A DNA stretch of 61,933 bases, the filler included. It is 6 parts of 6 records of this genome, joined end to end, with 100 filler letters (N's around TTAATTAATTAA, not from the genome) between each part and the next. Parts side by side here need not be neighbours in the genome. Positions count along the whole stretch, not along the records: positions 48,311 to 61,933 come from DRR723986_6890; 5 more parts are not named here. One strand, 5' to 3'. The position numbers were made by a program, and so were the translations under genes. A model generated the notes under the pieces. The model was not told the origin of the DNA. It saw only the letters and a list, made by a program, of their open reading frames with translations, and made no database searches. Positions 47,261-61,410 of this stretch are shown one piece after another (positions within the stretch are counted from its first letter, which is position 1; each line of letters begins with the position of its first letter).

Positions 47261-48049
47261 ATGTCCGGAGAACTCTCGCCCATCGACAAGGCCAAATTTG
47301 TCTCGGCGAAACGTGCCGCGCAATATGTCGAAGACGGGATGCGTGTCGGGCTTGGCACCGGATCAACCGCCGCATGGCTGGTGCGTTGCCTGGGGGAGCT
47401 GGTGCGCGATGACGGGCTCAAGATCAAGGGCGTGCCGACCTCCAGCCGCACCGCGCAGCTGGCGCGGGATGTGGGCATTGAGGTGATCACGCTGGATGAG
47501 GCCAAATGGCTGGATCTGACCATTGACGGGGCTGACGAATTTGATGGTGATCTGAACCTGATCAAAGGTGGCGGGGGTGCGTTGCTTTTGGAAAAGATCA
47601 TCGCGACGGCCAGTGATCAGATGGTGGTCATCGCCGACGTTGGCAAAGAGGTTGAGACGCTGGGCGCCTTTCCTTTGCCGGTGGAGGTGATCCCATTTGG
47701 CTGGCAGACCACGCAAGCTTTGATCGAAGAAACCCTGATCAGCATGGATGTTCTGGGCCGGACTTCAACCTTGCGGATGAACGGCGAGGCGCCCTATGTC
47801 ACCGACGAGGGCAATCACATCCTCGATTTGCATCTCAACCGGATCGGCAATGCGCGGCAATTGGCGCTGGTGTTGAACCAGATGCCGGGTGTTGTGGAAA
47901 ACGGCCTGTTTATCGACATTTGTGACACAGTTGTGATCGGCTATGGGGATGGCAAGGTCGAAGTGCGCGACATAAATGAAGGCACGGTTGCAACAGAACG
48001 GCTTGATTTTGTTGAATCTGACAATTTGTTTTCGGACCTTACGGAATAG
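47261..48049 (+). CDS. rpiA: Ribose-5-phosphate isomerase A
   Basis: GLGTGSTA, DLTIDGADE, LIKGGGGALL.EKI, TDEGN.I.D, PGVVENGLF. Confidence 0.96.
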   Translation: MSGELSPIDKAKFVSAKRAAQYVEDGMRVGLGTGSTAAWLVRCLGELVRDDGLKIKGVPTSSRTAQLARDVGIEVITLDEAKWLDLTIDGADEFDGDLNLIKGGGGALLLEKIIATASDQMVVIADVGKEVETLGAFPLPVEVIPFGWQTTQALIEETLISMDVLGRTSTLRMNGEAPYVTDEGNHILDLHLNRIGNARQLALVLNQMPGVVENGLFIDICDTVVIGYGDGKVEVRDINEGTVATERLDFVESDNLFSDLTE

Positions 48050-48210
<161 letters not shown>

Positions 48211-48310
48211 NNNNNNNNNNNNNNNNNNNNNNNNNNNNNNNNNNNNNNNNNNNNTTAATTAATTAANNNNNNNNNNNNNNNNNNNNNNNNNNNNNNNNNN
48301 NNNNNNNNNN
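48211..48310. other. Artificial contig linker
   Basis: 44 N + TTAATTAATTAA + 44 N. Confidence 0.98.
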
Positions 48311-48496
48311 CAGCAGCGGATACCACTTCATCAGCTTCATGGCCGCGGAGAAAGGAATGTCGCCACCGCCAGTGCCCCAAAGGGCCAGAGCGGCGATTGC
48401 GGCAATGCCGCCGATGGCGCCGAAAACGCGCTGCCCCGTCAGGAGCATCAGCATCATCGACGAGAACATCAGGAGAGCGATCATCTCGTATGACAT
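48311..48496 (-). CDS. TRAP transporter large permease, N-terminal fragment
   Basis: MSYEMIALLMFSSMMLMLLTGQRVFGAIG...; TGATG coupling to small permease. Confidence 0.8.
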
Positions 48497-49092
48497 CAGA
48501 GCGTCTCTCCCTTGATCAGGGCGATATCCTTGATGAATTCCGAGATGGCCTGCAGCAGCATCAAAACAAATCCAATGATCATTATGAGTTTGACCGGCCA
48601 GAGATAGGGCCGCCAGGCCGTCGGGCTGCGCTCGATATAGCCGAGCTTTTCAGCTGCCGCGTCAGGACCACCGGTGATGAAGGAAACGAACAGGTCCCAC
48701 CAGAAGCTGAGCGAGTCCTTGCCGAAATAGCCAAGCGAGTACGCCGTGGAATTCAGCGCGCCATAGAGCAGCACGCCGAGATAGAACATCAGCAGCAGCA
48801 CCGTGAAGGCATCGAACCAGGCCTTCTTCTTGGTGCTCCACTCGGCATAGAACAGATCCATGCGCACATTGGAGCCGAGCTGTATGGAATAGGGCCCGCC
48901 CAGAATGTAATAGGCAACCATCGCGAACTGGGCGACTTCCAGTGTCCAGAGCGATGGATTGAAGAAGGTCTTGGAGATCGACGACCACAGAAGGATCGCC
49001 GCCATGACGAAGACCCCCCACATGATTATTTTGCCGAGACCCCGATTGAAGCCGTCGACGATGCAGATATAGATGCGGGCAGCCTTAAGCAT
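48496..49092 (-). CDS. TRAP transporter small permease (DctQ)
   Basis: Four TMs; WTLEVAQF, VRMDLFY, P.WPVK...G..L..LQ. Confidence 0.88.
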   Translation of the reverse strand: MLKAARIYICIVDGFNRGLGKIIMWGVFVMAAILLWSSISKTFFNPSLWTLEVAQFAMVAYYILGGPYSIQLGSNVRMDLFYAEWSTKKKAWFDAFTVLLLMFYLGVLLYGALNSTAYSLGYFGKDSLSFWWDLFVSFITGGPDAAAEKLGYIERSPTAWRPYLWPVKLIMIIGFVLMLLQAISEFIKDIALIKGETL

Positions 49093-49882
49093 GGGCTTCT
49101 CCCTGCGTCTGCCCGCCAACGGCTTGCGCGGCGTGCTCCAGCAGGGGCGCCAGAAGATCGCTCCACTGCGCTTCTTCTGCCGAGGTCTTCACTTCGTCGT
49201 TGCGGATTTCAATCATCAGGCAAGGCAGCTTGCGATCCTCGCCGTGCCGACGGATTGTATAATAGACACCATCGGACGGAGCGTATGGCTCGTTGTCACC
49301 AACGGTCAGGCCGGCATGTGCCTTCAAGGCTTCCAGAACCGGATCCGCAAGACGCCGGTCCCTGTCGTAGATGAGGCCGATTTCCCAGGGACGGGACTGG
49401 CCCTTGTAGACCGGCGTGAACGAATGGATGGAGACCACCGCTGTCGGCAGCCCGCGCTCGAGACGCTGGCTGATCACATTGTCGATGGCGTCGTGAAACG
49501 GCCGGTGCGCAAGGTCCAGACGGAAGGTCTTCTCATCGGCCGACAGGTCCTGGTTGCCCGCAATCTTGGTGGTTTCGCTGAGGCACGGGATCAGGTCAGG
49601 CCGGTTTTCCTCACGATTGCAGTCGATGATCAGGCGCGAGACAGTGGTATGCACCAGCGGCGCATCAAGGCTCTTGGCCAGCCCCCTGGCAACGCCGAGC
49701 GCTCCCGGGTCCCACGCGATATGCGCAATCTTGTCCGCATCGGTAATCCCGAGCGATGTATCGTAGGGGGGCGGAAAGAAGTTGGAAGCGTGATCGCAGA
49801 CAAAAACGAAAGGCCCCGCTCCCTCCGCATTTTCAACGGCGACAGCCCGAGTCATTCCTCCGGTCTGGGGATTCGAACCCAT
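49085..49882 (-). CDS. N-formylglutamate amidohydrolase family protein
   Basis: CDHASN, HIAWDPGA, SRLIIDCNR, PFH, SIHSFTP, VGDNEPY, IEIRND. Confidence 0.9.
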   Translation of the reverse strand: MGSNPQTGGMTRAVAVENAEGAGPFVFVCDHASNFFPPPYDTSLGITDADKIAHIAWDPGALGVARGLAKSLDAPLVHTTVSRLIIDCNREENRPDLIPCLSETTKIAGNQDLSADEKTFRLDLAHRPFHDAIDNVISQRLERGLPTAVVSIHSFTPVYKGQSRPWEIGLIYDRDRRLADPVLEALKAHAGLTVGDNEPYAPSDGVYYTIRRHGEDRKLPCLMIEIRNDEVKTSAEEAQWSDLLAPLLEHAAQAVGGQTQGEAHA

Positions 49883-49914
49883 TCCCTACTCCCTGAAAGA
49901 TCGGCCCTGCATTT

Positions 49915-49969
49915 TGTAATGTTTATTACAGGATTGCCGACTTAACTAACTTCTGTAATATTTGATACG
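49915..49969. promoter_or_regulatory. Tandem palindromic operator sites, likely for the RpiR regulator
   Basis: Perfect TGTAAT-GTTT-ATTACA (49915-49930) and degenerate TGTAAT-ATTT-GATACG (49954-49969) in the divergent intergenic region. Confidence 0.6.
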
Positions 49970-50030
49970 CAGATTGCAGCGGCTGTCAAATGAAATTCAG
50001 TGCCGCGGACCGTCATAAAGGCCGACGCCC

Positions 50031-50900
50031 ATGGAACGTCCTCTTCTGGAAGATATTCGCGACCGTCTGGACGAATTCACCGCCACGGAAAAGAAGGCGG
50101 CGCATGCGTTGTTGGCCAATTACCCGATGCAGGGACTGGGCACCGTCGCCCAGTTTGCAGAGGCCGCGGGGGTCAGCTCCCCCACCATCTTGCGCTTCGT
50201 CGGCCGCCTGGGTTTTCCCGGCTTCGCCGAGTTTCAGCGGAAACTCCGCGGCGAACTTGAAAGCCAGCTGAATTCGCCACTCGCCCGCAGTGCCAACATG
50301 GAAGACGACCCGGTCGGCGACCCCCATGTCAGCCAGCTACTGGAAAATGTGCGCGAGACCTTTGCCCATCTGCCGAAAGGTGAACTGACCGGCCTCGTCA
50401 AGCTGCTGTCGGACGAACGCAAGCATGTGCACCTGATCGGGGGCCGCTTTACCGACGGCCTTGCCCGTTACATGGCAGCGCATCTGCGGATCGTCCGGGC
50501 CAACGTCAATCACGTCGCCGGCCAGCAGGGCAACTGGCTGGACCAGCTCATCGGCATCGGTCCGAAGGACGTTGTCGTCGTTTTCGATATCCGGCGCTAT
50601 CAGGCTGAAATCATCCAGTTTGCCGAAGCCGCCGCCCGTCAGGGTGCCACAGTGGCCCTTGTCACCGATAGCTGGATGTCACCGGTCGGCCGCATCGCCA
50701 CCTTCGTTCTGCCTGCCCGCGTTGCGGTCCCCTCCCCTTGGGACTCCTCGCTGGCACTCATGGCGATTGCCGAAGTGCTCATCACCGGCGTCACCCGTGA
50801 GAACCAGAAGCGGGCCCAGGAGCGCATGCGCGCACTGGAGAAATTGCGCAACGACATCGACCCCTCGACAGAAGGCCGCGCCATGGGGCCGGATATCTGA
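50031..50900 (+). CDS. MurR/RpiR family transcriptional regulator
   Basis: T.TEKK.A..LL, A.AAGVSSPTILRF..RLGF.GF.EF HTH, followed by SIS domain. Confidence 0.92.
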   Translation: MERPLLEDIRDRLDEFTATEKKAAHALLANYPMQGLGTVAQFAEAAGVSSPTILRFVGRLGFPGFAEFQRKLRGELESQLNSPLARSANMEDDPVGDPHVSQLLENVRETFAHLPKGELTGLVKLLSDERKHVHLIGGRFTDGLARYMAAHLRIVRANVNHVAGQQGNWLDQLIGIGPKDVVVVFDIRRYQAEIIQFAEAAARQGATVALVTDSWMSPVGRIATFVLPARVAVPSPWDSSLALMAIAEVLITGVTRENQKRAQERMRALEKLRNDIDPSTEGRAMGPDI

Positions 50901-51107
50901 CCGGGCCGGAACCACTTGAAACCGTACACAGTCGAAGATCGGTTCGCTCGCGGTGAGCGACTCACCTATACTCGCCCCATCACGGCCTGCTGAAAGCCGA
51001 AGCGGGCCCCTGACAGAAGCTGCGCCAGCCGGTCTGGCAGGTCCCGAACCGGCAGGCCTGAACAGGGAGCGAGATCCATCGCAAGTGACGCGCCCCTAAA
51101 AGGTGCC

Positions 51108-51566
51108 GTGTTTCGGCCCGTCATCCGCTCAACACCAAGAGCCTTTATCCGCCGGGGTGACCGGCTGCTGGTGCAAGACAAGCGACACCCCGTCAAAGGC
51201 CGGTACTTCACTCTGCCCGGCGGCAAGCAGGACCCGGGCGAAACGCTCGAAGCCTGCCTGAAGCGCGAATGCGTGGAAGAAATCGGTGCCGCAATCACCG
51301 TGTCGCACCTGATGCATGTGGCGGAAGTTCATCGGCGCAAACAGGCCGCAAGAGAGTATCAGCACCAGCTCGATTTCATTTTCGCCTGCAGCGTTGCAGA
51401 AGATTACCAACCGGTATTGGGACCACGCCCGGACCCGCATCAGGTCGGGACACGCTGGATAGGTTTCGACGAAGCTCAACAGCTACGTCCGCTTTATGTC
51501 ACAAAACTGTTTTCACTTGGCTGTACGCGGGAGCCCGAAGTCTATCTCGGACCCCATAATGATTAA
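51108..51566 (+). CDS. NUDIX hydrolase
   Basis: Nudix box GGKQDPGETLEACLKRECVEEIG; stop overlaps next start by 8 nt. Confidence 0.88.
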   Translation: MFRPVIRSTPRAFIRRGDRLLVQDKRHPVKGRYFTLPGGKQDPGETLEACLKRECVEEIGAAITVSHLMHVAEVHRRKQAAREYQHQLDFIFACSVAEDYQPVLGPRPDPHQVGTRWIGFDEAQQLRPLYVTKLFSLGCTREPEVYLGPHND

Positions 51567-53193
51567 TGCCCCAAAGACCATTCGGGAAAATCTCCGTTTT
51601 CTGTGCGCGGAAATCGATGGTCAGCTCATACAGCTTGAAGCCTTCTTCAAGGAACCGACGGCAGCGACGGCACGCCGGATCATGGACCGTGCCGGATACG
51701 CCCATAACCTGAAGAGCCGGATTCTTGCGGCCTGTGTCCAGCAGATGGCCGGAGCCAGAAAGAACGATCGCAAACATCTTACCCTGCGCAGCCTGGAGTT
51801 TGTCGCCACCGATCTTCAGCGCATCGCCAACCTGGTGCGCCAATCCTTGCGCCATGCAGAGCGCATCGAAACCTTTTTAACGCTCGAACCTGAACGTTAT
51901 CCCGCGATCGTCAGTCGTGTTCGACAAGGCGTTGCCCGCATCGAGGACGCCCTTCTCAGCAGGGACAGTGAAAAGGCCATAGAGATCGGCCAGCTCCAGA
52001 ACAAGATCGAGGCTGACTACCGCAAGCTCTTCAAGGCCTACACACGCGACATGCGCAACCCGGACCGGCTGCCGGCCGACATCGCCAACAGCCTGCTGGT
52101 CGCCAGCGAATTCCAGCGCATGGGTGAATCCCTGCGGGCCATAAGCGAAGCGCTGATTTCCGCCAACATCGGACAGGCAGTCAATTTCGAACGCTATTTC
52201 GCCCTGCAAAGCCTGATGTCGGACCTGGACACGGCCAGCGACGATGTCACCATTGAAACGATTGCCGAAACCAGGTCGGGAAGCTCCATCTCCGCCATCA
52301 AGGACAAGAAGACCGAAACGGTTACGGCCGTTTTCAAGGATGGCGACAAGAGCAAGGTCAAGGAAGAGCGCCAGGGCGTGAAAAGCTGGCATTCCATCTA
52401 TCCAGGCCTTGCCCCGAAAATCCTGTCCTACCGCAAACGCGACCAGTCGGCAGCGCTCCTGATCGAACATTTGCCTGGCCTGACCTTCGAGCACATCGTC
52501 CTGAACGAAGGCGACGCCCTGCGCAACCAGGCACTTGCCAGTCTTTCCCGCACGCTGAAAGACGTCTGGAAGCAGACGCGGACCGCAGAACCGGCGGATC
52601 TTGGCAGCATGCAGCAACTTGGCAAACGCCTTGGAGACGTCCGCAGGGTTCACCCGGAATTCAAGGAAACCGGCATCCATTTCGCGGGAGAGACCCTTCC
52701 CTCGCTCGACGCCCTGATCACCGAGGCAGCCGGCCGCGAGGCAAGGGTGACCGCTCCCTTTTCCGTCTATATCCACGGCGACTTCAACGTCGACAACATC
52801 ATCTACGACCCGGGCGAGAACCGGATCCACTTTGTCGACCTGCATCGCTCCCGCTACATGGACTACGTCCAGGACGTGTCCGTGTTCATGGTCTCGAACT
52901 ACCGGCTTCAGGTACTCGACAGGGAAACACGCCGGCGGATCAGCGATGTCTCTCTCGCATTCTACAAATCCGTACGAGCCTTCGCCCGCAAACAGGGTGA
53001 CGACACGTTCGAATATCGGCTTGCCCTTGGCCTTGCCCGGTCCTTTGCCACGTCGACGCGGTTCATTCTGGACAAGTCGCATGCCCGGCGCATGTGGCTG
53101 CGTGCCCGCTACCTGATCGAACAGGCCCTTGCCTGCCCGCCTGGCGCCGAGGCCCGGTTCCGCCTGCAAATGAAGGAGATCTTCGTTGACTGA
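51559..53193 (+). CDS. PhoU-domain / APH-like (protein-kinase fold) phosphotransferase fusion, GAK-associated
   Basis: Two helical PhoU-like repeats (DLQRIANL, EFQRMGESL), then VFK..KVKEE, IHGDFNVDNII, FVDL, QD. Confidence 0.75.
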   Translation: MINAPKTIRENLRFLCAEIDGQLIQLEAFFKEPTAATARRIMDRAGYAHNLKSRILAACVQQMAGARKNDRKHLTLRSLEFVATDLQRIANLVRQSLRHAERIETFLTLEPERYPAIVSRVRQGVARIEDALLSRDSEKAIEIGQLQNKIEADYRKLFKAYTRDMRNPDRLPADIANSLLVASEFQRMGESLRAISEALISANIGQAVNFERYFALQSLMSDLDTASDDVTIETIAETRSGSSISAIKDKKTETVTAVFKDGDKSKVKEERQGVKSWHSIYPGLAPKILSYRKRDQSAALLIEHLPGLTFEHIVLNEGDALRNQALASLSRTLKDVWKQTRTAEPADLGSMQQLGKRLGDVRRVHPEFKETGIHFAGETLPSLDALITEAAGREARVTAPFSVYIHGDFNVDNIIYDPGENRIHFVDLHRSRYMDYVQDVSVFMVSNYRLQVLDRETRRRISDVSLAFYKSVRAFARKQGDDTFEYRLALGLARSFATSTRFILDKSHARRMWLRARYLIEQALACPPGAEARFRLQMKEIFVD

Positions 53194-54076
53194 CCTCAGG
53201 ATCGGCGTTGTCGGCATACCCGGCAAATGGTCGACGGAAGTTCTGGCGGACGCCCTGGAAGCACAAACAGGTTTTCGCTGCGTGGTCGACATGGCCGACG
53301 TCGTTCTGGATCTGGAAACCAGGGCGCTGATGGCTGGGCAGATCGATCTTTGCAGCCTCGACGGCATCGTGGTCAAGAAGATCAGCCAGACCTACAGCCC
53401 CGCAACGCTGGACCGGCTGGAGATGTTGCGCCTTGCCGAGGCCAGCGGCATCAAGGTCTTTTCCAGCACAAGGTCCATTCTCGGCCTGGTCAACCGGCTG
53501 AGCTGCACCGTGACGCTGGCCAATGCAGGCATTCCCATGCCAGCCACCTGCGTGAGCGAAAGCGAAGACGAAGCCCTGGGCGCCGTCCTGCGGTTCGGCA
53601 GTGCGGTGTTCAAGCCCCTGTTTTCGACAAAAGCCCGCGGCATGACGCTGATGGATGCCGCCGAGGGCGAAACAGCCCTCCGGCACAAGATTGCCGCGTT
53701 CAAGGCCGAAAATCCGGTGATGTACCTGCAAAAGAAGGTCAATCTTTCCGGCAGGGACCTCGGCATGGTTTTCCTCGGCGGGTCCTATCTCGGCACCTAT
53801 GCCCGCGTTGCCCAGACAAACAGCTGGAACACGACCATCCTTCACGGCGGCAAATACGAGCCGTTCGAACCGGATGCCGAACTGATCGAACTGGCGCGCC
53901 GCGCGCAGGAACCGTTCGATCTCGACTTCACCACCGTGGATGTCGGCCTGACGGACAGCGGACCGGTCGTGTTCGAGGTCTCGGCCTTCGGTGGTTTCAA
54001 GGGAGCTCTGGAAGGCGCCGGCATCGACGCTGCCAAGCTTTACGCCAACCATGTAATTGAAAAGGTGCGCGGATGA
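53186..54076 (+). CDS. GAK system ATP-grasp enzyme (RimK-like)
   Basis: IGVVGIPGKWSTE.LAD, GIPMP.T, VFKPLFSTKARGM, YLQK, RDL, WNTTILHGGKY, TVDV, FEVSAFGGF; TTG start. Confidence 0.85.
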   Translation: MTDLRIGVVGIPGKWSTEVLADALEAQTGFRCVVDMADVVLDLETRALMAGQIDLCSLDGIVVKKISQTYSPATLDRLEMLRLAEASGIKVFSSTRSILGLVNRLSCTVTLANAGIPMPATCVSESEDEALGAVLRFGSAVFKPLFSTKARGMTLMDAAEGETALRHKIAAFKAENPVMYLQKKVNLSGRDLGMVFLGGSYLGTYARVAQTNSWNTTILHGGKYEPFEPDAELIELARRAQEPFDLDFTTVDVGLTDSGPVVFEVSAFGGFKGALEGAGIDAAKLYANHVIEKVRG

Positions 54077-55173
54077 CCGGCATAACCGTCCAGGACGTTG
54101 TCGACGCTCTTTCCCCGGCTCGGGAAACGCGAAACTGCGATCCGGTGTGCCTCACGGTCGGCGGCCATGTGGTCGAGGTGAGATGCACCTCTTCGGCGCT
54201 TCTGGCCGAATTGCTGCGCTATTTCCAGCATGTGATTTCCGCGCCGAGCGAACCGGACAGGATCGTCCATGTGCTCGGATCCATGGAACTGCCCTTTGAC
54301 CCGGAGTACACCGACTGGGAGCGGGAAACGGGAAAGTCCGGCCGCAAGGATGCGGTCTGCGACCTTGAAAACGGGCGCCTGATCCTGAAGGTCCGCACGG
54401 GTCTGCAGTTCCTGCAATCCCCCGACTGGGCGATCGCCTTTGGCCCTACGGACGATCACCCCAACCAGGTGATCAACTTCATCAACACCCAGTTTCTCAA
54501 TCACTTCCAACGGCAGGGGTGGGTCGCCTGTCATGCAGCGGCTGTCCGCACCCCCAACAGGGGGCTTGCGATATCGGGCCTTTCCGGCGGCGGCAAGTCC
54601 ACCTCGATGTTGCGCCTGATGGAACTCACCGGCACGCAGTATGTCACCAACGACCGCCTTCTCGTGCGCAATGCCGGCAACAGCACCGATGCGCTCGGCA
54701 TTCCGAAACTGCCGCGCATCAACCCGGGCACCATCGTCACCAATGCACGGCTGACCGGTCTTATCGACGAGGAGCGCGAAGAGGAACTGCGCAACCTGGA
54801 ACCGGACGAACTCTGGCACCTGGAAGAAAAATACGACCTCTTCATCGATGACATCTATGGCCCCGGGCGCATTTCCCACGATGCGCGCCTGACAGATTTC
54901 TGGGTGTTGAACTGGTCCCGCGACAGCGCCGACGCGACCGAGGTAAGCAAGACGGATCTGAAGGACCGGCCGGATCTTCTGTCGGCGATCATGAAGAACC
55001 CCGGCCCGTTCTACCAGACACCGCAAGGCCCGTTCTGGCCGATGAAAACACCGCTCGACACAGAGGCCTACCTGGGGGCGCTCGAAGGTGTTCAGGTGTG
55101 GGAAGTGAAGGGACTGATCGATTTCGACGCCCTGTTTGAAGCCGGTGCAGAGCTGCTGGGACAAACGCCATGA
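54073..55173 (+). CDS. HprK-related kinase B (GAK system)
   Basis: KVRTG, NQVINFIN, CHAAAV, Walker A GLSGGGKST, TNDRL, PKLPRINPGT, LW.LEEKYD. Confidence 0.85.
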   Translation: MTGITVQDVVDALSPARETRNCDPVCLTVGGHVVEVRCTSSALLAELLRYFQHVISAPSEPDRIVHVLGSMELPFDPEYTDWERETGKSGRKDAVCDLENGRLILKVRTGLQFLQSPDWAIAFGPTDDHPNQVINFINTQFLNHFQRQGWVACHAAAVRTPNRGLAISGLSGGGKSTSMLRLMELTGTQYVTNDRLLVRNAGNSTDALGIPKLPRINPGTIVTNARLTGLIDEEREEELRNLEPDELWHLEEKYDLFIDDIYGPGRISHDARLTDFWVLNWSRDSADATEVSKTDLKDRPDLLSAIMKNPGPFYQTPQGPFWPMKTPLDTEAYLGALEGVQVWEVKGLIDFDALFEAGAELLGQTP

Positions 55174-55871
55174 CAGACCGCTTCGCCATCCTGGTGCGTC
55201 ATGGCGCTTACAATCAAAAACCGGACACGCCGAGTGCCCTGCAGCCCTATGGCCTGACCGATGCAGGCAAGGTGCAGGCACAAGAACTTGGCGCCGAGAT
55301 TGCAGACATCGCGCGGCAGGAAGGCTTCCGGCTGGCACCGGAGATCTTGTGTTCACGCCAGCTCAGAGCCTGGCAGACGGCAGCGCTTCTTGGCCAGTCG
55401 CTTGGTGAAGTCCTCGGATCGGACTTCACGATCACCGAGGACGAAGCTCTTGCCGAACGCAGTGTCGGTGCCCTTGCCAACCTCACCTTGCGGGAAATCG
55501 AGCAGGTGATAGCAGACGATCCACGCACCGCCCCGCTGCGGGGAGACTGGAAGTCGAACAGCCACCACAGACTGCCGGTTCAGGGCGCTGAGAGCCTGAT
55601 GGAAGCCGGACAGCGGGTGGCTGCGTTCCTGGATCAGAAGATGGCAGATCTGGATGACGAGGCAGGACCCGGTGCCCGGATCTTCGTCGGCCACGGTGCT
55701 TCCATACGACATGCCGCCCATTGCCTGGGTGTGCTGACGTTTGACCAGATCCGCCAGCTCAGCATGCACCACGCGCGCGCCGTCGTCCTGAAACTGGAGA
55801 GCGATGGCACCTGGGTGCACCACCGGGGTGACTGGAAACTGCGACAGCCACTTGAAACCGCAACGGATTGA
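55170..55871 (+). CDS. Histidine phosphatase (phosphoglycerate mutase superfamily)
   Basis: LVRHG, LT..G..QA, RAWQTA, LAER, GAES, VGHG. Confidence 0.88.
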   Translation: MTDRFAILVRHGAYNQKPDTPSALQPYGLTDAGKVQAQELGAEIADIARQEGFRLAPEILCSRQLRAWQTAALLGQSLGEVLGSDFTITEDEALAERSVGALANLTLREIEQVIADDPRTAPLRGDWKSNSHHRLPVQGAESLMEAGQRVAAFLDQKMADLDDEAGPGARIFVGHGASIRHAAHCLGVLTFDQIRQLSMHHARAVVLKLESDGTWVHHRGDWKLRQPLETATD

Positions 55872-57250
55872 ACCGGATTGCTGCCATGATGACCCATCTG
55901 CCACTGACCCCGCTTCTGCCGCCGATGGACCAGGCGGAAGCCATTGATCTCGGCCTGCCCGAAAGCTGTATCCCCTGGCCACTGGCGCCCATCGGGAATC
56001 TGCCCCTCGGCCAGTTCACCACCGAAAGCACCCTTCCCGGTGTTGTCGGCAGCCTTGCCCGGGCAAATGCTCTTGGCCCCTGGGACTGGCCGGAAAAGCC
56101 GGTAATCTTCATTTCCGACCTGCATGCGGATGCGGAAAGCCTGTTGAGATCCCTGACGGCGGCACGGGCAATCCAGCGCAATGGAGATGGTCTGAGCGAC
56201 TTTCACCTGACGCCCTTCGGCCGAAGCTGCCAGTTCATCATCGGTGGCGATTGCCTGGACAAGGGCCCCAGCAATCTGGACCTTCTCGACAGCCTCAGCG
56301 CGCTGCTGAAAACCGGCGCCGATGTCGTCATCCTCGCCGGCAACCACGACCTGCGGCTTTACCTCGGTCTCGAAGCCCTGACGGTCAAGCGCAGCTCGCT
56401 CAACGCCCATATGTTCGTTCGCATGGGCAAGAAGGTGATGCCGCTCTTGAAGGAAGTACACGAGCGGTATGTCGGCAGCTCGGCCGACCTCGCCATGCTG
56501 CCCGACGAGGAAACCTGCCTGTCGCTGATGGTTCCGGGAAAGAAGTGGACCAGACAATTTCCGAAGGCAGCCTCACGCTATCTGAGTGACGCGGCCATCC
56601 GCAAGGAAATGCAGCGGCTTAAGAAGAAGGCGGACAAGTTCGCGGAACACGCCGCCGAAGTCGGCCTTACCATTCGTCAGCTGTATGCTGCCGCGCTCAA
56701 ATGCCGGGAACTCTTCGTTGAACCTGGCGGACGCTACGCCTGGTTCTTTCAAAGTCTCAAGGCCGTGCATCAGAGCGGCTCGCTGCTATTCGTGCATGCC
56801 GGTATCGATGATCACATGGCTGCCCAGATCTCGGCAAAAGGTGTGGCCCACGTCAATCGCCGCTTTCGGAAGGAAAGCCGGAAGGACCCATTCGTGTTCT
56901 ACTCCGGCACCATCGCCAATCTGATGCGCACGAAATACCGGGATGTGGACCATCCCTTGACCGAAACCGGCGTAGACGATCTCCATCTTGCCGGCATCAG
57001 GATGCTGGTACAGGGGCACGTCAACAGGCACAGCGGACAGGAGCTGACGTCCAAGCACGGCCTCTTGCATCTGGAAGCGGACATCACGCTCGACCGGCAT
57101 TCCAGAAGCTCCGAAGGTCTTGAAGGCATCGGCACAGGTGCCACGATCATCTGCCCTGATGGCAACATCGTCGGCATCAGCCGGGATTATCCCCACGCCA
57201 AGCTGTTCAATCCGGCACACATTCTCCAACAACACGGTTTGTCGTCATGA
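55868..57250 (+). CDS. Calcineurin-like metallophosphoesterase
   Basis: SDLHAD, GGDCLDKG, GNHD, FVHAG, QGH; start uncertain (TTG 55868 or a slightly later ATG). Confidence 0.85.
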   Translation: MNRIAAMMTHLPLTPLLPPMDQAEAIDLGLPESCIPWPLAPIGNLPLGQFTTESTLPGVVGSLARANALGPWDWPEKPVIFISDLHADAESLLRSLTAARAIQRNGDGLSDFHLTPFGRSCQFIIGGDCLDKGPSNLDLLDSLSALLKTGADVVILAGNHDLRLYLGLEALTVKRSSLNAHMFVRMGKKVMPLLKEVHERYVGSSADLAMLPDEETCLSLMVPGKKWTRQFPKAASRYLSDAAIRKEMQRLKKKADKFAEHAAEVGLTIRQLYAAALKCRELFVEPGGRYAWFFQSLKAVHQSGSLLFVHAGIDDHMAAQISAKGVAHVNRRFRKESRKDPFVFYSGTIANLMRTKYRDVDHPLTETGVDDLHLAGIRMLVQGHVNRHSGQELTSKHGLLHLEADITLDRHSRSSEGLEGIGTGATIICPDGNIVGISRDYPHAKLFNPAHILQQHGLSS

Positions 57251-57522
57251 TGGAACGCAAGGGCCGTTTCCGGCACCAGTCCCTGCAGGACAGGAAATCG
57301 ATCCAGAAACTGCTCGACGCGGTCAAGCGTGGCATTGCCAAGGGCGAGCTGCAATTCGGTGACGACACTGGTGAGATTACCCTGCACCCGAAAGGTCTGC
57401 TGGCCATCAGGGTGACAGCCACTACGGAAGACGACCAATCCCGACTGGACCTGCGCATCACATGGGCCAACGACGGCCAGGACAAGAAGGACAATGGCAA
57501 GCTGAAGGTAAAGGGCGGATAG
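57247..57522 (+). CDS. Amphi-Trp domain protein (GAK system)
   Basis: F.HQSLQD..SI..LL.A...G...G.L......ITLHP..L...V.A......L.LRITW: amphipathic helix/strands ending in the conserved Trp. Confidence 0.82.
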   Translation: MMERKGRFRHQSLQDRKSIQKLLDAVKRGIAKGELQFGDDTGEITLHPKGLLAIRVTATTEDDQSRLDLRITWANDGQDKKDNGKLKVKGG

Positions 57523-57555
57523 GGCCAAGCCCCGAAAACCGGTTACCCCTTCGCC

Positions 57556-57742
57556 ATCATTCCGGACAAGGAAGGCGCAGCCCCCCGCAGATCCGGAATC
57601 CGGGCATCAGCCGCGCTGAAAGCGCGTCCTCTCATATCCCGACACCTGTGCCTGGCCGGGAGGAGAAATCAGCCTCCCTTGGAGGAAAACAAAGCCCGGT
57701 GTGTACTGGATCCCGGTCCTGGTTGCGCCAAACCGGGATGAC
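57556..57742. repeat. Pair of inverted CGTC-type palindromic intergenic repeats
   Basis: ATCATTCCGGAC...GATCCGGAATCC (57556-57601) and, on the minus strand, GTCATCCCGG...CCGGGATCCAGTA (57742-57704). Confidence 0.65.
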
Positions 57743-57783
57743 AAACATCGGATTGGGAAAGAGCCTTGGGGCCAATGCGGCCC

Positions 57784-58821
57784 TCAGCAGATGCGCGGCA
57801 GTTGCTCGCCCGAGAGCCAGTCGACAACACGGGAGCCGCCGAAGCCGGTCTTCATGACCACCATGCAATCGGCGTCCTCCACGATTTCGCCGATCTTCGC
57901 AGCATTCTGCCCCAGCGGGTGTGCCTTCATGATCTCCAGCAACCGGTCTGCATCAGACGCCTCGCAAATGCAGATCAGCTTGCCTTCATTGGCAACGTAA
58001 AGCGGGTCGAGACCGAGCAGCTCGCAGGCCCCTTCCACGTCCGGGCGAACGGGGATCTCACCCTCGTCGAGCATCACGCCAACCTTCGAAGCATGAGCGA
58101 TTTCGTTCAGCGCAGTTGCCAGTCCACCCCTGGTCGGATCCCGCAGAACCGAAATGCCCGGCACCGCGTCGACCATCGAACCGACGAGGCCATGTAGTGC
58201 TGCACTGTCGGACTGGATTTCGGTTTCGAAGGTCAGGTTTTCCCGTTTCGACAGGATGGCCACACCATGATCGCCAATGGTACCGGACAGAAGAACCGCC
58301 TGACCTGGCTTGGCCGCAGCGGGAGAAATCGAGACGCCTTCCGGCAGAACTCCAACACCGGTCGTTGTGATGAAGACCCCGTCGCCCTTCCCCTTTTCAA
58401 CCACCTTGGTATCGCCGGAAACCACCGGCACTCCGGCTTCACGGGCTGCGCGCGCCATGGATATGACAATGCGTTCCAGATCTGCCAGCGGGAACCCTTC
58501 TTCCAGTATGAAACTTGCTGTGAGGGACACCGGCCTTGCACCAGCCATGGCCACATCGTTCAAGGTACCATGGACCGAAAGCGATCCGATATCGCCACCC
58601 GGAAAGAACAGCGGCGAGATCACATGGGCATCGGTCGACATGACGAGCCGTCCTGGCGGCACTTCGAGCACCGCCGCATCATGGCCCTGGTCCAGGATTG
58701 TATTTTTCAGATGCCGGTGAAACAGGTCCTCGATCAGGACGGCCATGGCCCGGCCGCCGCCGCCATGGGTCATATCGACAGCGCCGGTACGGAATTTTGC
58801 CTGCGGATCGATGCTGGTCAC
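57784..58821 (-). CDS. hypE: Hydrogenase maturation carbamoyl dehydratase
   Basis: HGGGG, STD.HVISPLFFPGGDIG.L.V.GT.ND, GDTKVV, RDPTRGG, ANEGK, GEQLPRIC*. Confidence 0.96.
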   Translation of the reverse strand: MTSIDPQAKFRTGAVDMTHGGGGRAMAVLIEDLFHRHLKNTILDQGHDAAVLEVPPGRLVMSTDAHVISPLFFPGGDIGSLSVHGTLNDVAMAGARPVSLTASFILEEGFPLADLERIVISMARAAREAGVPVVSGDTKVVEKGKGDGVFITTTGVGVLPEGVSISPAAAKPGQAVLLSGTIGDHGVAILSKRENLTFETEIQSDSAALHGLVGSMVDAVPGISVLRDPTRGGLATALNEIAHASKVGVMLDEGEIPVRPDVEGACELLGLDPLYVANEGKLICICEASDADRLLEIMKAHPLGQNAAKIGEIVEDADCMVVMKTGFGGSRVVDWLSGEQLPRIC

Positions 58822-59969
58822 GCCGCAGCTCCCTTGGCGGCGGCAATCGCCTCGCGCTTGCGGCCATAGGTCCAGTATGCGGCGCAGGCACCTTCAGAGG
58901 AAACCATGCAGGCCCCCATCGGATTGTCCGGCGTGCAGACCGTGCCGAACAGCTTGCATTCCGTGGGCTTCTTCACCCCGCGCAGGATCGCCGGACATTC
59001 GCAGGATTTGACTTCGCGCGACTCCTTCGGGCTGAGCGCAAAGCGCACTTCGGCATCGAAGTCGACATAGGCTTCTCGGATTTTCAGGGCACTGTCAGGA
59101 ACATAGCCGAGCCCGCGCCATTCAAAGGTCCGGCGCAACTCCAAAACGTCGTCAACCAGCCTTTGGGCCTTGCGATTGCCTTCCTTCGTGACGACCCGGG
59201 TGTACTGGTTTTCCACTTCATGCCGGCCTTCGTTGATCTGGCGGATCAGCATCAGGGTCGACTGCATCACGTCGAGCGGCTCAAAGCCGGCAATGACGAC
59301 TGGTCTCCTGAAGTCCCGCGCCGCCGGTTGGTACGGCGCCCAGCCGATGACCGAGCTGACGTGAGAAGGCCCGAGGAAACCGTCGATTTTCACCGGCTGC
59401 TCCCCCGGCTCCGCCGGAGCGTTGACGATATGGGCGATGGCAGGCGGTGTCAGAACGTGATTGCAGAAGACGGAGAAATTCTTCAGGCCTTCCGCCTTTG
59501 CCTGCAGGATCGCGACCGCCGTTGGCGGCGTCGTCGTCTCAAAGCCGATGGCGAAAAAGACCACCTGCCGTTGCGGGTTCTCCCGCGCAATCCGCAGGGC
59601 ATCCTGGGTCGAATAGACCATCCGGATATCGGCGCCTTCGGCCTTGGCCCGGATCAGGCACTTCTGCTTGGTGCCCGGCACCCGCATCATGTCGCCATAG
59701 GTGGTCAGGATCACATTCGACTTCAGTGCCAGCTCGATCGCATCATCGAGACGCCGTACCGGCAAGACACAGACCGGGCATCCCGGCCCATGCACATACT
59801 CGACATTTTGCGGAACCAGATCCTGCACTCCGTAACGGAAAATGGCGTGAGTATGCCCACCGCAAAATTCCATCAGATGGTAGCGTCGGTCCGGATCAGC
59901 TTCCTGCCCGATTGCAAGGGCAAGCTTTTGCGCCAGTTTTCCGTCCCGAAATTCCTTGATGTATTTCAT
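58818..59969 (-). CDS. hypD: Hydrogenase formation protein
   Basis: MEFCGGHTH, GPGCPVC, GFETTTP, PSHVS, C.LFG..CTP..P.GACMVSSEGAC. Confidence 0.96.
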   Translation of the reverse strand: MKYIKEFRDGKLAQKLALAIGQEADPDRRYHLMEFCGGHTHAIFRYGVQDLVPQNVEYVHGPGCPVCVLPVRRLDDAIELALKSNVILTTYGDMMRVPGTKQKCLIRAKAEGADIRMVYSTQDALRIARENPQRQVVFFAIGFETTTPPTAVAILQAKAEGLKNFSVFCNHVLTPPAIAHIVNAPAEPGEQPVKIDGFLGPSHVSSVIGWAPYQPAARDFRRPVVIAGFEPLDVMQSTLMLIRQINEGRHEVENQYTRVVTKEGNRKAQRLVDDVLELRRTFEWRGLGYVPDSALKIREAYVDFDAEVRFALSPKESREVKSCECPAILRGVKKPTECKLFGTVCTPDNPMGACMVSSEGACAAYWTYGRKREAIAAAKGAAA

Positions 59970-60235
59970 GCGCCCGTCCCCACCACCGGCTCGCCCGCCA
60001 TCTCCTCCAGCTCCTCGGCAAGAACACCGGCTTCCGCCATAAGCTGAAGGGTCCGTTCGGCTTCCTCCTCGCTGAGCTTGTGCAGGGCATAGCCGACATG
60101 GACGAGCACATAGTCGCCAACGGCAACCTCCTCCAGGAGAGCCGTCGAGACCGGTTTCCGGATCCCTTCCAGAGCGACGGTTGCCATGTCGTCGCTATCG
60201 ACGGAAACCACCCTTGCGGGAATGGCGAGACACAT
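59966..60235 (-). CDS. hypC: Hydrogenase assembly chaperone
   Basis: MCLAIPA...VGDYVLVHVGYA. Confidence 0.96.
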   Translation of the reverse strand: MCLAIPARVVSVDSDDMATVALEGIRKPVSTALLEEVAVGDYVLVHVGYALHKLSEEEAERTLQLMAEAGVLAEELEEMAGEPVVGTGA

Positions 60236-60247
60236 GACGGAGAACTC

Positions 60248-61069
60248 CTATTCCGCAGCAAGACCGCGTGCGTGCGCTGCCTGCATCTTCAAGGCACCGT
60301 CCAGCCAGACTAACCAGCCTTCCAGGCCACCGCCAGTGCGCGCCGACACTTGCAGGACCTGGATCTTGTGATTGACCCGTCGTGCATTCCCGATCGCCGC
60401 GCCGACGCAAAAATCGACATGCGGCAGAAGGTCGGTCTTGTTGAGGATCATCAGGTCGGCGTTGGCGAAGATATCGGGGTATTTCAGCGGCTTGTCCTCG
60501 CCTTCCGTCACCGAAAGGATCACCACCTTGAAGGCTTCGCCGAGATCGAATGCGGCAGGGCAGACCAGGTTGCCGACATTCTCGATGAAAAGCACGCTGC
60601 CTTCGTCCAGCGGCAACTTCTCCAAGGCATGACCGACCATATGTGCATCCAGATGGCACCCCTTGCCGGTGTTGATCTGAATGGCAGGTACTCCCGTTTC
60701 CCGGATCCGCTCGGCATCGTTTGACGTCTGCTGATCGCCTTCGATGACCGCAGCCGGGGTCCTGCCCGCCATCCGCTTCAAGGTTTCGACAAGCAGCGTT
60801 GTCTTCCCGGAGCCGGGGCTTGAGACAAGATTGAGTGCCAGAACGCCTTTTGCGGCCAGCAATGCACGATTGTTGTCCGCATAGGAATTGTTCTTGCCCA
60901 GAATATCGGTTTCGATCTGGATCAGCCGTGCCTGGCTCATGCCCGGAACGGAAACGCCGGCTTCCCCTTCGCCGAAATGGACATGACTTGCGTCATGTGA
61001 ATGGGCGTGTCCATGGTGATGCTCATGGTCATGTTCGTGAGACCCGCTGCAACCGCATACCGTACACAT
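60248..61069 (-). CDS. hypB: Hydrogenase nickel incorporation GTPase
   Basis: MCTVCGC, His-rich tract, [28 protein letters not shown]. Confidence 0.96.
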
Positions 61070-61410
61070 CACACCACCTCCAGTTCCCGGATCTTCAGCT
61101 CTTCCCCACTGACAACCTGCAGGGCTTCCGAACCACATTTCGGGCAGCAATCGAACCGTGCGTTCACCTGCACGGTCTTGAAACAGGAAAGACACAGCGC
61201 GTCGGCTGAAGGCCTGGATATTTCCAGAATGGCGCCTTCGGCGAGTGAACCCCGCATGACAACGTCGAATCCGAATTTCAGCGCCTCTGGTTCGACGCAA
61301 GACAGCGGTCCGATGTCGACCGCGACCCGCTTCACCCGGGTAAAGCTATCCTTCGCCGCCTGATCCTTCAAAATGTCGAGTATGCTCTCGCAAAGTGACA
61401 TTTCATGCAT
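61069..61410 (-). CDS. hypA: Hydrogenase nickel metallochaperone
   Basis: MHEMSL, CLSC, CPKCG, G.EL.I. Confidence 0.96.

Follow-up and report, generated by a model that had tools for sequence, protein, structure and literature searches.

A seven-gene GAK operon with phosphatase accessory genes, its place in a distinct subtype, and candidate roles for its amphi-Trp protein

The Grasp-Amphipathic-Kinase (GAK) system is a known kind of gene system, defined by the database models TIGR04354-TIGR04358, which describe a small amphi-Trp protein, an HprK-related kinase B, an ATP-grasp ligase, a CofD-like protein and an XXXCH protein. No publication on the function of this system was found in the full-text literature, with most subscription journals outside coverage, and the only mention of an amphi-Trp protein that was found is a table entry, in a list of the 20 proteins most abundant in Dissulfuribacter thermophilus. 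Here we report the analysis of a seven-gene GAK operon at positions 51108-57522 of a 61,933-nucleotide (nt) stretch of DNA, in the part taken from DRR723986_6890; this whole stretch, made of six joined parts with filler between them, is referred to as the window. The operon is, with high confidence, an intact and complete locus of a distinct alpha- and gammaproteobacterial GAK subtype, named here 'type II'.

Enzymes related to those of the GAK system are known from a variety of pathways. The small proteins LysW and S6, which are modified by the ATP-grasp enzymes LysX/ArgX and RimK, typically carry a conserved C-terminal Glu acceptor, and RimK-like ATP-grasps also make graspetides. APH-type kinases typically act on small molecules, and polyphosphatases or Ap4A hydrolases are known among the NUDIX and metallophosphatase families. 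The lasso-peptide kinases PadeK, ThcoK and PsmK presumably correspond to the 'HprK-related kinase A' model. HprK-like kinases of lasso-peptide systems are described as phosphorylating and polyphosphorylating a Ser of the precursor peptide (PMC9266682), and CHAD domains are described as polyphosphate-binding (PMC6537752).

The gene order NUDIX hydrolase, PhoU-APH kinase, ATP-grasp ligase, kinase B, histidine phosphatase, metallophosphoesterase and amphi-Trp protein recurs in most of the best 80 loci fetched by kinase B, as found by tblastn with the window proteins, and was seen in Roseibium, the Rhodobacterales and several gammaproteobacterial groups. Kinase B scored above its cut-off in 14 genomes of an even sample of 401 Pseudomonadota genomes, and the wider flanks of 12 of these 14 loci had the type II layout in every case (12/12), with one locus lacking a histidine-phosphatase match and one contig stopping before amphi-Trp. 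The conservation of gene order that the initial annotation had taken as decisive was thus borne out in both collections. Among the 73 type II loci flanked on either side by 5 kb or more, the PhoU-APH kinase, the ATP-grasp ligase and amphi-Trp were present in all 73, the histidine phosphatase and the metallophosphoesterase in 67 each (68 for the latter in a recount with hidden Markov models, HMMs), and the NUDIX hydrolase in 51. A fusion of a SixA-like histidine phosphatase with a NUDIX domain was found in 32 of the 73; it lies between kinase B and the histidine phosphatase in gammaproteobacteria and adjoins a divergent CofD-like gene in Rhodobacterales, and a search with one protein query did not find its orthologue in the genome of Roseibium aggregatum IAM 12614. 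Two rearranged gammaproteobacterial loci carry an extra gene of the endonuclease/exonuclease/phosphatase family beside NUDIX and kinase B (L053:861-2015 and L069:556-1725, both on the minus strand), which represents a further phosphoesterase type.

A second architecture, termed type I, was found in metagenome contigs. The alignment used to collect them was headed by a distant kinase B sharing 33% identity with that of the window, the ORFs (open reading frames) were scored with HMMs derived from the type II loci, and 25 loci had enough flank to be counted. The type I order is a protein of ~390 amino acids (aa), amphi-Trp, PhoU-APH kinase, ATP-grasp, kinase B, CofD-like protein, a second amphi-Trp and often XXXCH, and NCBIfam models match its amphi-Trp, its CofD-like protein (CofD_rel_GAK, 518 bits) and its XXXCH protein (70-83 bits). 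The PhoU-APH kinase was present in 24 of the 25 type I loci, as was the CofD-like gene, there inside the operon; XXXCH was found in 17 of 25 and, with the HMM built here, in 0 of 73 type II loci. The histidine phosphatase, the metallophosphoesterase, the NUDIX hydrolase and the SixA-NUDIX fusion were each found in 0 of 25 type I loci. Up to three amphi-Trp paralogues occur in type I loci. The second paralogue has a long low-complexity tail (L165:11246-11743, L173:2520-3038, L188:10094-10504 and similar cases), which is Lys/Pro/Ala-rich and histone H1-like in some loci and strongly acidic in others.

The ~390-aa type I protein, present in 25 of 25 type I and 0 of 73 type II loci, had no match to any Pfam or NCBIfam model, and its family comprises L133:4665-5846, L146:4975-6141 and proteins of 38 further metagenome loci. 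Its conserved columns read HxH, H, E, H, H and DDxH, and it has a large helical insertion. The AF2 model of this protein (pLDDT 91.3) matches the PHP fold, with RNase AM (9etk, E 1.8e-5), 3e0f (E 3.4e-5) and the pAp phosphatase 2yb1 (E 9.5e-4) among the matches; a search of its profile against solved structures by sequence gave nothing useful. In hhalign comparisons of the PHP-like protein with ten families of the type II set (the type II hydrolases, CofD-like, CHAD, ParA-like and three core enzymes), the probabilities did not exceed 1.6%.

The two accessory sets exclude each other. Among 98 loci, 68 carry a histidine phosphatase or metallophosphoesterase, 25 carry XXXCH or the PHP-like protein, none carries both and five carry neither. 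In a FastTree phylogeny of 84 kinase B proteins, built after removal of every row of undetermined type (46) and of roughly half the type II rows, one branch with 100% SH-like (Shimodaira-Hasegawa-like) support separates the types, with a single label change. It weighs against this division that a single query, different for the two types, selected each locus set by similarity, so that intermediates could exist. The invariant GAK core is the PhoU-APH kinase, the ATP-grasp ligase, kinase B and amphi-Trp; the initial annotation had overlooked the PhoU-APH kinase as a core member. Phosphoester hydrolysis is kept in both types by unrelated enzymes, and because both types add phosphoester hydrolases of unrelated families, the hydrolysis of phosphate esters or anhydrides appears to be an integral step of the system.

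The initial annotation had also described the operon as a variant in which a histidine phosphatase, a metallophosphoesterase and a NUDIX hydrolase replace the CofD-like and XXXCH members. The absence of these two genes from the operon was confirmed: tblastn with the CofD-like family (TIGR04357) gave no match anywhere in the window, and the NCBIfam scan gave no XXXCH (TIGR04358) match among the seven operon proteins. In a scan of five genomes for XXXCH, the controls gave no signal in any of them. The variant status stands in the form of the subtype described above, with its two kinase B clades, but not as phosphatases in place of CofD-like. The proposed mutual exclusivity of the two fails, since 33 loci contain both a CofD-like gene and type II phosphatases, and CofD-like adjoins 36 of the 73 type II loci, in 35 of them divergently. 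In R. aggregatum IAM 12614, which has a kinase B sharing 95% identity with that of the window, CofD_rel_GAK lies on another contig (497 bits, cut-off 340), with a DUF4147/MOFRL protein on one side and an RbsD/FucU protein on the other, and the encoded protein has a CofD Pfam domain (138 bits). CofD_rel_GAK scored above the cut-off in 7 of the 401 Pseudomonadota genomes, six of which also have kinase B, and in three of these six it is unlinked to kinase B. It was not found above the cut-off in 8 of the 14 kinase-B-positive genomes, one of which has a largest contig of 4.08 Mb, and therefore the CofD-like protein is a frequent but dispensable partner.

The operon itself comprises seven plus-strand ORFs, each without an internal stop in the window sequence, with successive overlaps of 8, 8, 4, 4, 4 and 4 nt (Table 1). 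The ORFs and their overlaps were recovered at the positions given by the initial annotation, and the catalytic motifs that it had named as intact were all located in the translated ORFs. Its assignment of the operon to the GAK system was likewise upheld by the three model scores reported below for ATP-grasp, kinase B and amphi-Trp.

Table 1. Genes of the GAK operon and the adjacent upstream regulator gene, in window coordinates
Gene product	Position	Strand	Start	Length	Family or domain	Remark
RpiR-family regulator	50031-50900	+			HTH_6 + SIS	~200 nt upstream of operon
NUDIX hydrolase	51108..51566	+	GTG	152 aa	PF00293	
PhoU-APH kinase	51559..53193	+	ATG	544 aa	PF01895 + PF01636	
GAK ATP-grasp ligase	53186..54076	+	TTG	296 aa	TIGR04356	
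HprK-related kinase B	54073..55173	+	ATG	366 aa	TIGR04355	
Histidine phosphatase, branch 1	55170..55871	+	ATG	233 aa	PF00300	
Metallophosphoesterase	55868..57250	+	TTG	460 aa	PF00149	
Amphi-Trp small protein	57247..57522	+	ATG	91 aa	TIGR04354	

The longest possible ORF of the PhoU-APH gene begins at 51496 and has 565 aa; the start at 51559 is preferred because homologues align from its residue 1 in many loci. Within the 565-aa ORF, PF01895 matches residues 143-219 (35.9 bits, cut-off 23.5) and PF01636 matches residues 306-466 (39.1 bits, cut-off 23.2). The kinase motifs of the PhoU-APH protein are the HGDFNVDN catalytic loop at 406 and DLH at 427. One PhoU repeat passes the Pfam cut-off, the phoU_full model scores 27.8 (cut-off 130.25), and the type I orthologue has a PhoU score of 60.7. 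The best of the aminoglycoside-resistance equivalogs, APH_3p, scores 33.7, far below its cut-off of 205, and no relative was found among solved structures by sequence. The ATP-grasp ligase matches grasp_GAK (TIGR04356) with 448 bits (cut-off 300) and is the most conserved protein of the system, with at least 57% identity across the aligned alpha- and gammaproteobacterial rows. The next-best NCBIfam model is MptN (137 bits, E 6.4e-40, cut-off 350), and LysX (99.9, cut-off 275.6), rimK_fam (98.6, cut-off 143.4) and RimK (45.8, cut-off 331) also stay below their cut-offs; the CofF model matches too, and the Pfam RimK domain scores 40.4, above its cut-off of 21. The closest solved relatives are LysX (5k2m, E 8.5e-17) and RimK (5zct, E 4e-10).

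Kinase B matches HprK_rel_B (TIGR04355) with 305.4 bits (cut-off 200) and is 99% identical to a protein that NCBI assigns to R. aggregatum. Its catalytic motifs, H154, the Walker A motif GLSGGGKST (169-177) and NDR (193-195), are invariant columns in the alignments. As a single sequence, kinase B gave nothing useful against solved structures, and its profile matched HPr kinase/phosphorylase (2qmh/1jb1) at E 4.7e-5 with the catalytic motifs aligned. Its relatives are numerous: among the scored candidates there were 1936 matches at E <= 1e-5, there were 280 clusters at 50% identity with E <= 1e-30, and at least 598 places were found in a one-genome-per-species collection of 185,579 species. Four kinase B proteins from Roseibium (L035, L039, L046 and L062) group with those of Roseobacteraceae/Paracoccaceae and not with the R. 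aggregatum clade, and one type II locus (L029) is plasmid-borne (Marinibacterium sp. SX1 plasmid unnamed2, 266 kb); together these observations suggest horizontal transfer among marine alphaproteobacteria.

Each of the three hydrolases of the operon retains its catalytic signature. The NUDIX protein (PF00293, 61 bits) contains an exact Nudix box of the pattern GX5EX7REUXEEXGU (GKQDPGETLEACLKRECVEEIGA) at residue 39. The histidine phosphatase matches His_Phos_1 (PF00300, 73.4 bits), with RHG at 10 and GHG at 174, and a search against solved structures by sequence gave nothing useful. The metallophosphoesterase matches PF00149 in its N-terminal part only (27.5, cut-off 21.5) and has the motifs of the PPP/ApaH type (DLH 84, GDCLDKG 127, GNHD 158, HAG 310 and GH 383), followed by a long C-terminal half that matched no family. 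It has weak matches to ApaH, Pnkp and PdeM, with a score of 22.2 for the ApaH equivalog against a cut-off of 176, and it matches PDB 4j6o at E 0.003. In PADLOC, six of the seven operon proteins had no match at E <= 0.001: one gave a marginal JetA match (E 0.0093) and five gave none at all, and the NUDIX protein weakly matches the candidate model PDC-S07 (39.4 bits).

Amphi-Trp is the sole non-enzyme among the seven proteins. It scores 58.5 bits with TIGR04354 (cut-off 31) and 25.7 with Pfam PF20068, slightly below the cut-off of 27, and three of three genomes have one copy, inside the locus. Its AF2 model (mean pLDDT 85.7) consists of an N-terminal segment, an amphipathic helix (16-32) and four strands ending in the invariant Trp73, followed by a variable Lys-rich tail. 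Among its polar residues, conservation is highest in the N-terminal FRHxSLQD motif, reaching at least 90% for H10 and S12. Fold searches with the model (Foldseek best E 1.1, VIA-align wide best Z 3.0) found no significant relative, a search against solved structures by sequence gave nothing useful, and a protein atlas search returned amphi-Trp clusters alone. Prediction of a three-chain complex of ATP-grasp, kinase B and amphi-Trp, run without alignments or controls, gave a score of 0.00. The C-termini vary (…KVKGG, …PKVS, …PRIDS, …LSVK) and contain no conserved column; a terminal GG occurs in 12 of 13 close Roseibium relatives and in one other tail (L116). A LysW-like carrier role for amphi-Trp was therefore rejected, since its C-terminus is not conserved and the GG is nearly confined to close relatives within Roseibium.

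The surroundings of the operon are of housekeeping type. Upstream lie rpiA, an N-formylglutamate amidohydrolase gene and the RpiR-family regulator gene, and downstream, convergent to the operon, the minus strand at 57784-61300 encodes a HypE-like AIRS protein, HypD and a CobW/HypB-type GTPase; the locus position is kept in 13 of the 14 Roseibium loci (L001-L014). RpiR was rejected as a member of the system, being present at 13 of the 73 type II loci, all from Roseibium. Its place next to the operon is probably local synteny, and within Roseibium it could act as a regulator of the operon. A scan of 49800-58200 gave no sigma-70-like promoter sites and no plus-strand terminator downstream of amphi-Trp. 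The region 49900-58000 is covered by contigs of four RNA libraries. Three of these libraries gave single contigs of 13-17 kb, which may be DNA because they include opposite-strand genes, and in the fourth, pieces of low depth span five of the six gene junctions. Two intergenic segments that border the operon are strain-variable: at 57634-57716, after amphi-Trp, 81 nt are exchanged for 68 other letters in the contigs of all four RNA libraries, and at 50885-50901, upstream, two of the four have a 17-nt insertion. Farther upstream, the G+C content of the window at 47500-49000 is ~0.51, against ~0.60-0.62 in the surroundings, and a Pfam search with the 325-aa ORF at 48397-49374 gave no match.

Since relatives of kinase B and of the ATP-grasp ligase modify proteins or peptides, and since amphi-Trp has conserved N-terminal residues, we tentatively favor a reversible modification cycle in which amphi-Trp is the substrate or scaffold, a reading that we infer and hold at somewhat less than even chances. 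The combined statement that the locus is of type II and that amphi-Trp passes through such a cycle appears to us evenly balanced. The 'write/erase module' proposed in the initial annotation is a reasonable hypothesis. Kinase B would phosphorylate, and possibly polyphosphorylate, amphi-Trp on a hydroxyl residue, with Ser12 of the conserved FRHxSLQD as best candidate, by analogy with the action of HPr kinase on HPr and with the HprK-like lasso-peptide kinases. The ATP-grasp ligase would attach an amino acid to a carboxylate of amphi-Trp, the phosphatases and NUDIX would reset the protein, and the PhoU domain may couple the cycle to phosphate status, with an output that may concern polyphosphate granules. 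An extended scheme, in which amphi-Trp is a novel type of modified carrier or signal protein and cofactor-tail chemistry is done on the protein, seems improbable. There, kinase B would add a phosphate or a short polyphosphate chain to Ser12; the CofD-like protein and the MptN-like ATP-grasp would build a phosphodiester-linked, amino-acid-capped group on amphi-Trp; erasure would fall to the PHP protein in type I or to the histidine phosphatase, metallophosphoesterase and NUDIX in type II; and the PhoU-domain kinase would gate the process by phosphate status, so that modified amphi-Trp controls the formation or use of polyphosphate granules.

Several observations weigh against a cycle on amphi-Trp. 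Ser12 is replaced by Ala in 2 of 47 aligned sequences (L123 and L124), and the variable C-terminus leaves a ligation of the RimK/LysX style without the expected acceptor. The best-scoring characterized relative of the ATP-grasp, MptN, acts on a small-molecule cofactor, and the frequent partner of the ATP-grasp is homologous to the small-molecule phosphotransferase CofD. NUDIX, ApaH-like, SixA-like and PHP enzymes (RNase AM, pAp phosphatase) act mostly on nucleotides or small phosphates. In favor of a phosphate link, besides the PhoU domain of a core kinase, 12-13 of 92 loci, from alphas and gammas, carry both a CHAD protein (~500 aa) and a ParA-like ATPase, in one locus with a CYTH protein. 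The position of the pair varies: it may be downstream in convergent orientation, upstream on the strand of the operon, or within the operon. This pair is found neither in the window nor in any of the 25 type I loci, and CHAD is present in 10 of 73 type II and 0 of 25 type I loci, so that the polyphosphate link is suggestive only. The polyphosphate idea of the initial annotation thus gains modest support from the CHAD/ParA-like neighbors, without a conserved ppk or ppx gene among the neighbor clusters. One gammaproteobacterial GAK locus has an insertion encoding an AAA_21 ATPase and an RloB-like protein, with the metallophosphoesterase gene on one side and the CHAD gene on the other (L120:11105-12796); such a pair is typical of defense or abortive-infection modules.

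A small-molecule pathway, which we consider rather unlikely although it is a serious competitor, would have the enzymes make and recycle a metabolite or cofactor-like compound that is phosphorylated and capped with an amino acid, by CofD-like phosphodiester formation and MptN/CofF-like capping, as in the F420 and methanopterin side chains; the kinases would make phosphorylated precursors, the hydrolases would proofread or recycle, and amphi-Trp would be a regulator, chaperone or carrier. The rank of MptN as best non-GAK match of the ATP-grasp and the CofF match fit this chemistry, as do the co-occurrence of the CofD-family protein with kinase B (six of seven genomes) and its place in the operon in nearly all type I loci, and APH-type kinases, NUDIX and PHP proteins (pAp phosphatase 2yb1) suit small or nucleotide-linked compounds. 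The CofD-like protein is, however, dispensable, neither subtype conserves a donor-activating nucleotidyltransferase, no transporter or typical biosynthetic partner is conserved, and an invariant small non-enzyme with up to three paralogues in type I would be unusual for plain metabolism. In another reading, the enzymes would act directly on polyphosphate, pyrophosphate or dinucleoside/alarmone polyphosphates, and a basic-tailed amphi-Trp would bind granules or polyanions. To such a homeostasis function point the PhoU domain, the CHAD and ParA-like neighbors with the single CYTH protein, the Lys-rich amphi-Trp tails, the Lys/Pro/Ala-rich tails of the second paralogue in several type I loci and the weak ApaH match of the metallophosphoesterase. 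We nevertheless judge it improbable: ppk and ppx are missing from the conserved neighbor clusters, CHAD is a minority neighbor that does not occur in type I, an ATP-grasp of the amino-acid-ligase type is left without a role, and some amphi-Trp tails are acidic.

Very unlikely, in our view, is a graspetide-like natural product, with amphi-Trp as the precursor cross-linked by the ATP-grasp, or an anti-phage or abortive-infection module. The tailoring of lasso peptides by HprK-like kinases, reported in PMC9266682, and, for defense, the AAA_21/RloB insertion and the weak PDC-S07 match of NUDIX would agree with these roles. Against these roles, amphi-Trp is a confidently folded domain of ~90 aa with a variable tail rather than a leader-core peptide, and no protease or exporter is conserved; against them stand also the lack of PADLOC matches for six of the seven proteins and the stable position of the operon in Roseibium among housekeeping genes (rpiA, the rpiR-family gene and hyp genes). 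Together, the four-gene core, the two exclusive accessory sets and the non-orthologous replacement of the phosphoesterases argue for a central cycle of phosphorylation and dephosphorylation. The PhoU domain and the recurrent CHAD/ParA-like neighbors make a phosphate or polyphosphate link testable, and R. aggregatum, which is marine, can be cultivated and has the system in a compact form of seven genes, is practical for its study. As far as our searches show, there is no earlier description of the division into two types, of the PhoU-APH kinase as a core member, of the PHP-like family or of the association with CHAD and ParA-like genes.

Comparison with described systems places the window locus closest to the classical, type I GAK system (TIGR04354-TIGR04358), with which it shares orthologous amphi-Trp, PhoU-APH, ATP-grasp and kinase B genes, the last three in the same relative order. 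Type I has amphi-Trp ahead of these genes and CofD-like directly after kinase B, whereas amphi-Trp comes last in the window; type I also has the second, long-tailed amphi-Trp, XXXCH and the PHP-like protein, and the window locus has the histidine phosphatase, the metallophosphoesterase and NUDIX. With HPr kinase/phosphorylase, kinase B shares the catalytic core (His, GxSGxGKS and [DN]DR) and a suspected small protein partner of ~90 residues, but only ~55 residues can be aligned, the N-terminal region and the remainder of kinase B being unrelated by sequence; amphi-Trp has no detectable HPr-like fold, and the locus contains no genes of the phosphotransferase system (PTS). The lasso-peptide kinases PadeK, ThcoK and PsmK form a sister HprK-like group that can place several phosphates on one peptide Ser (PMC9266682), and the cyclase, the protease and the recognition protein for RiPPs (peptides made by the ribosome and modified after translation) of those systems are not present in the window locus. 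LysX/ArgX with LysW and RimK with S6, in which an amino acid is added onto a small protein, provide the closest solved relatives of the ATP-grasp, yet their C-terminal Glu acceptor has no counterpart in amphi-Trp, and the GAK ATP-grasp falls below every equivalog cut-off of these families. The likeness to CofD of the F420 pathway and to MptN/CofF consists of the CofD Pfam domain of the CofD-like partner and of MptN as the best characterized match of the ATP-grasp (137 bits against 350); the window locus differs from these pathways in having no F420 or methanopterin genes and in belonging to a system for which the CofD-like protein is optional.

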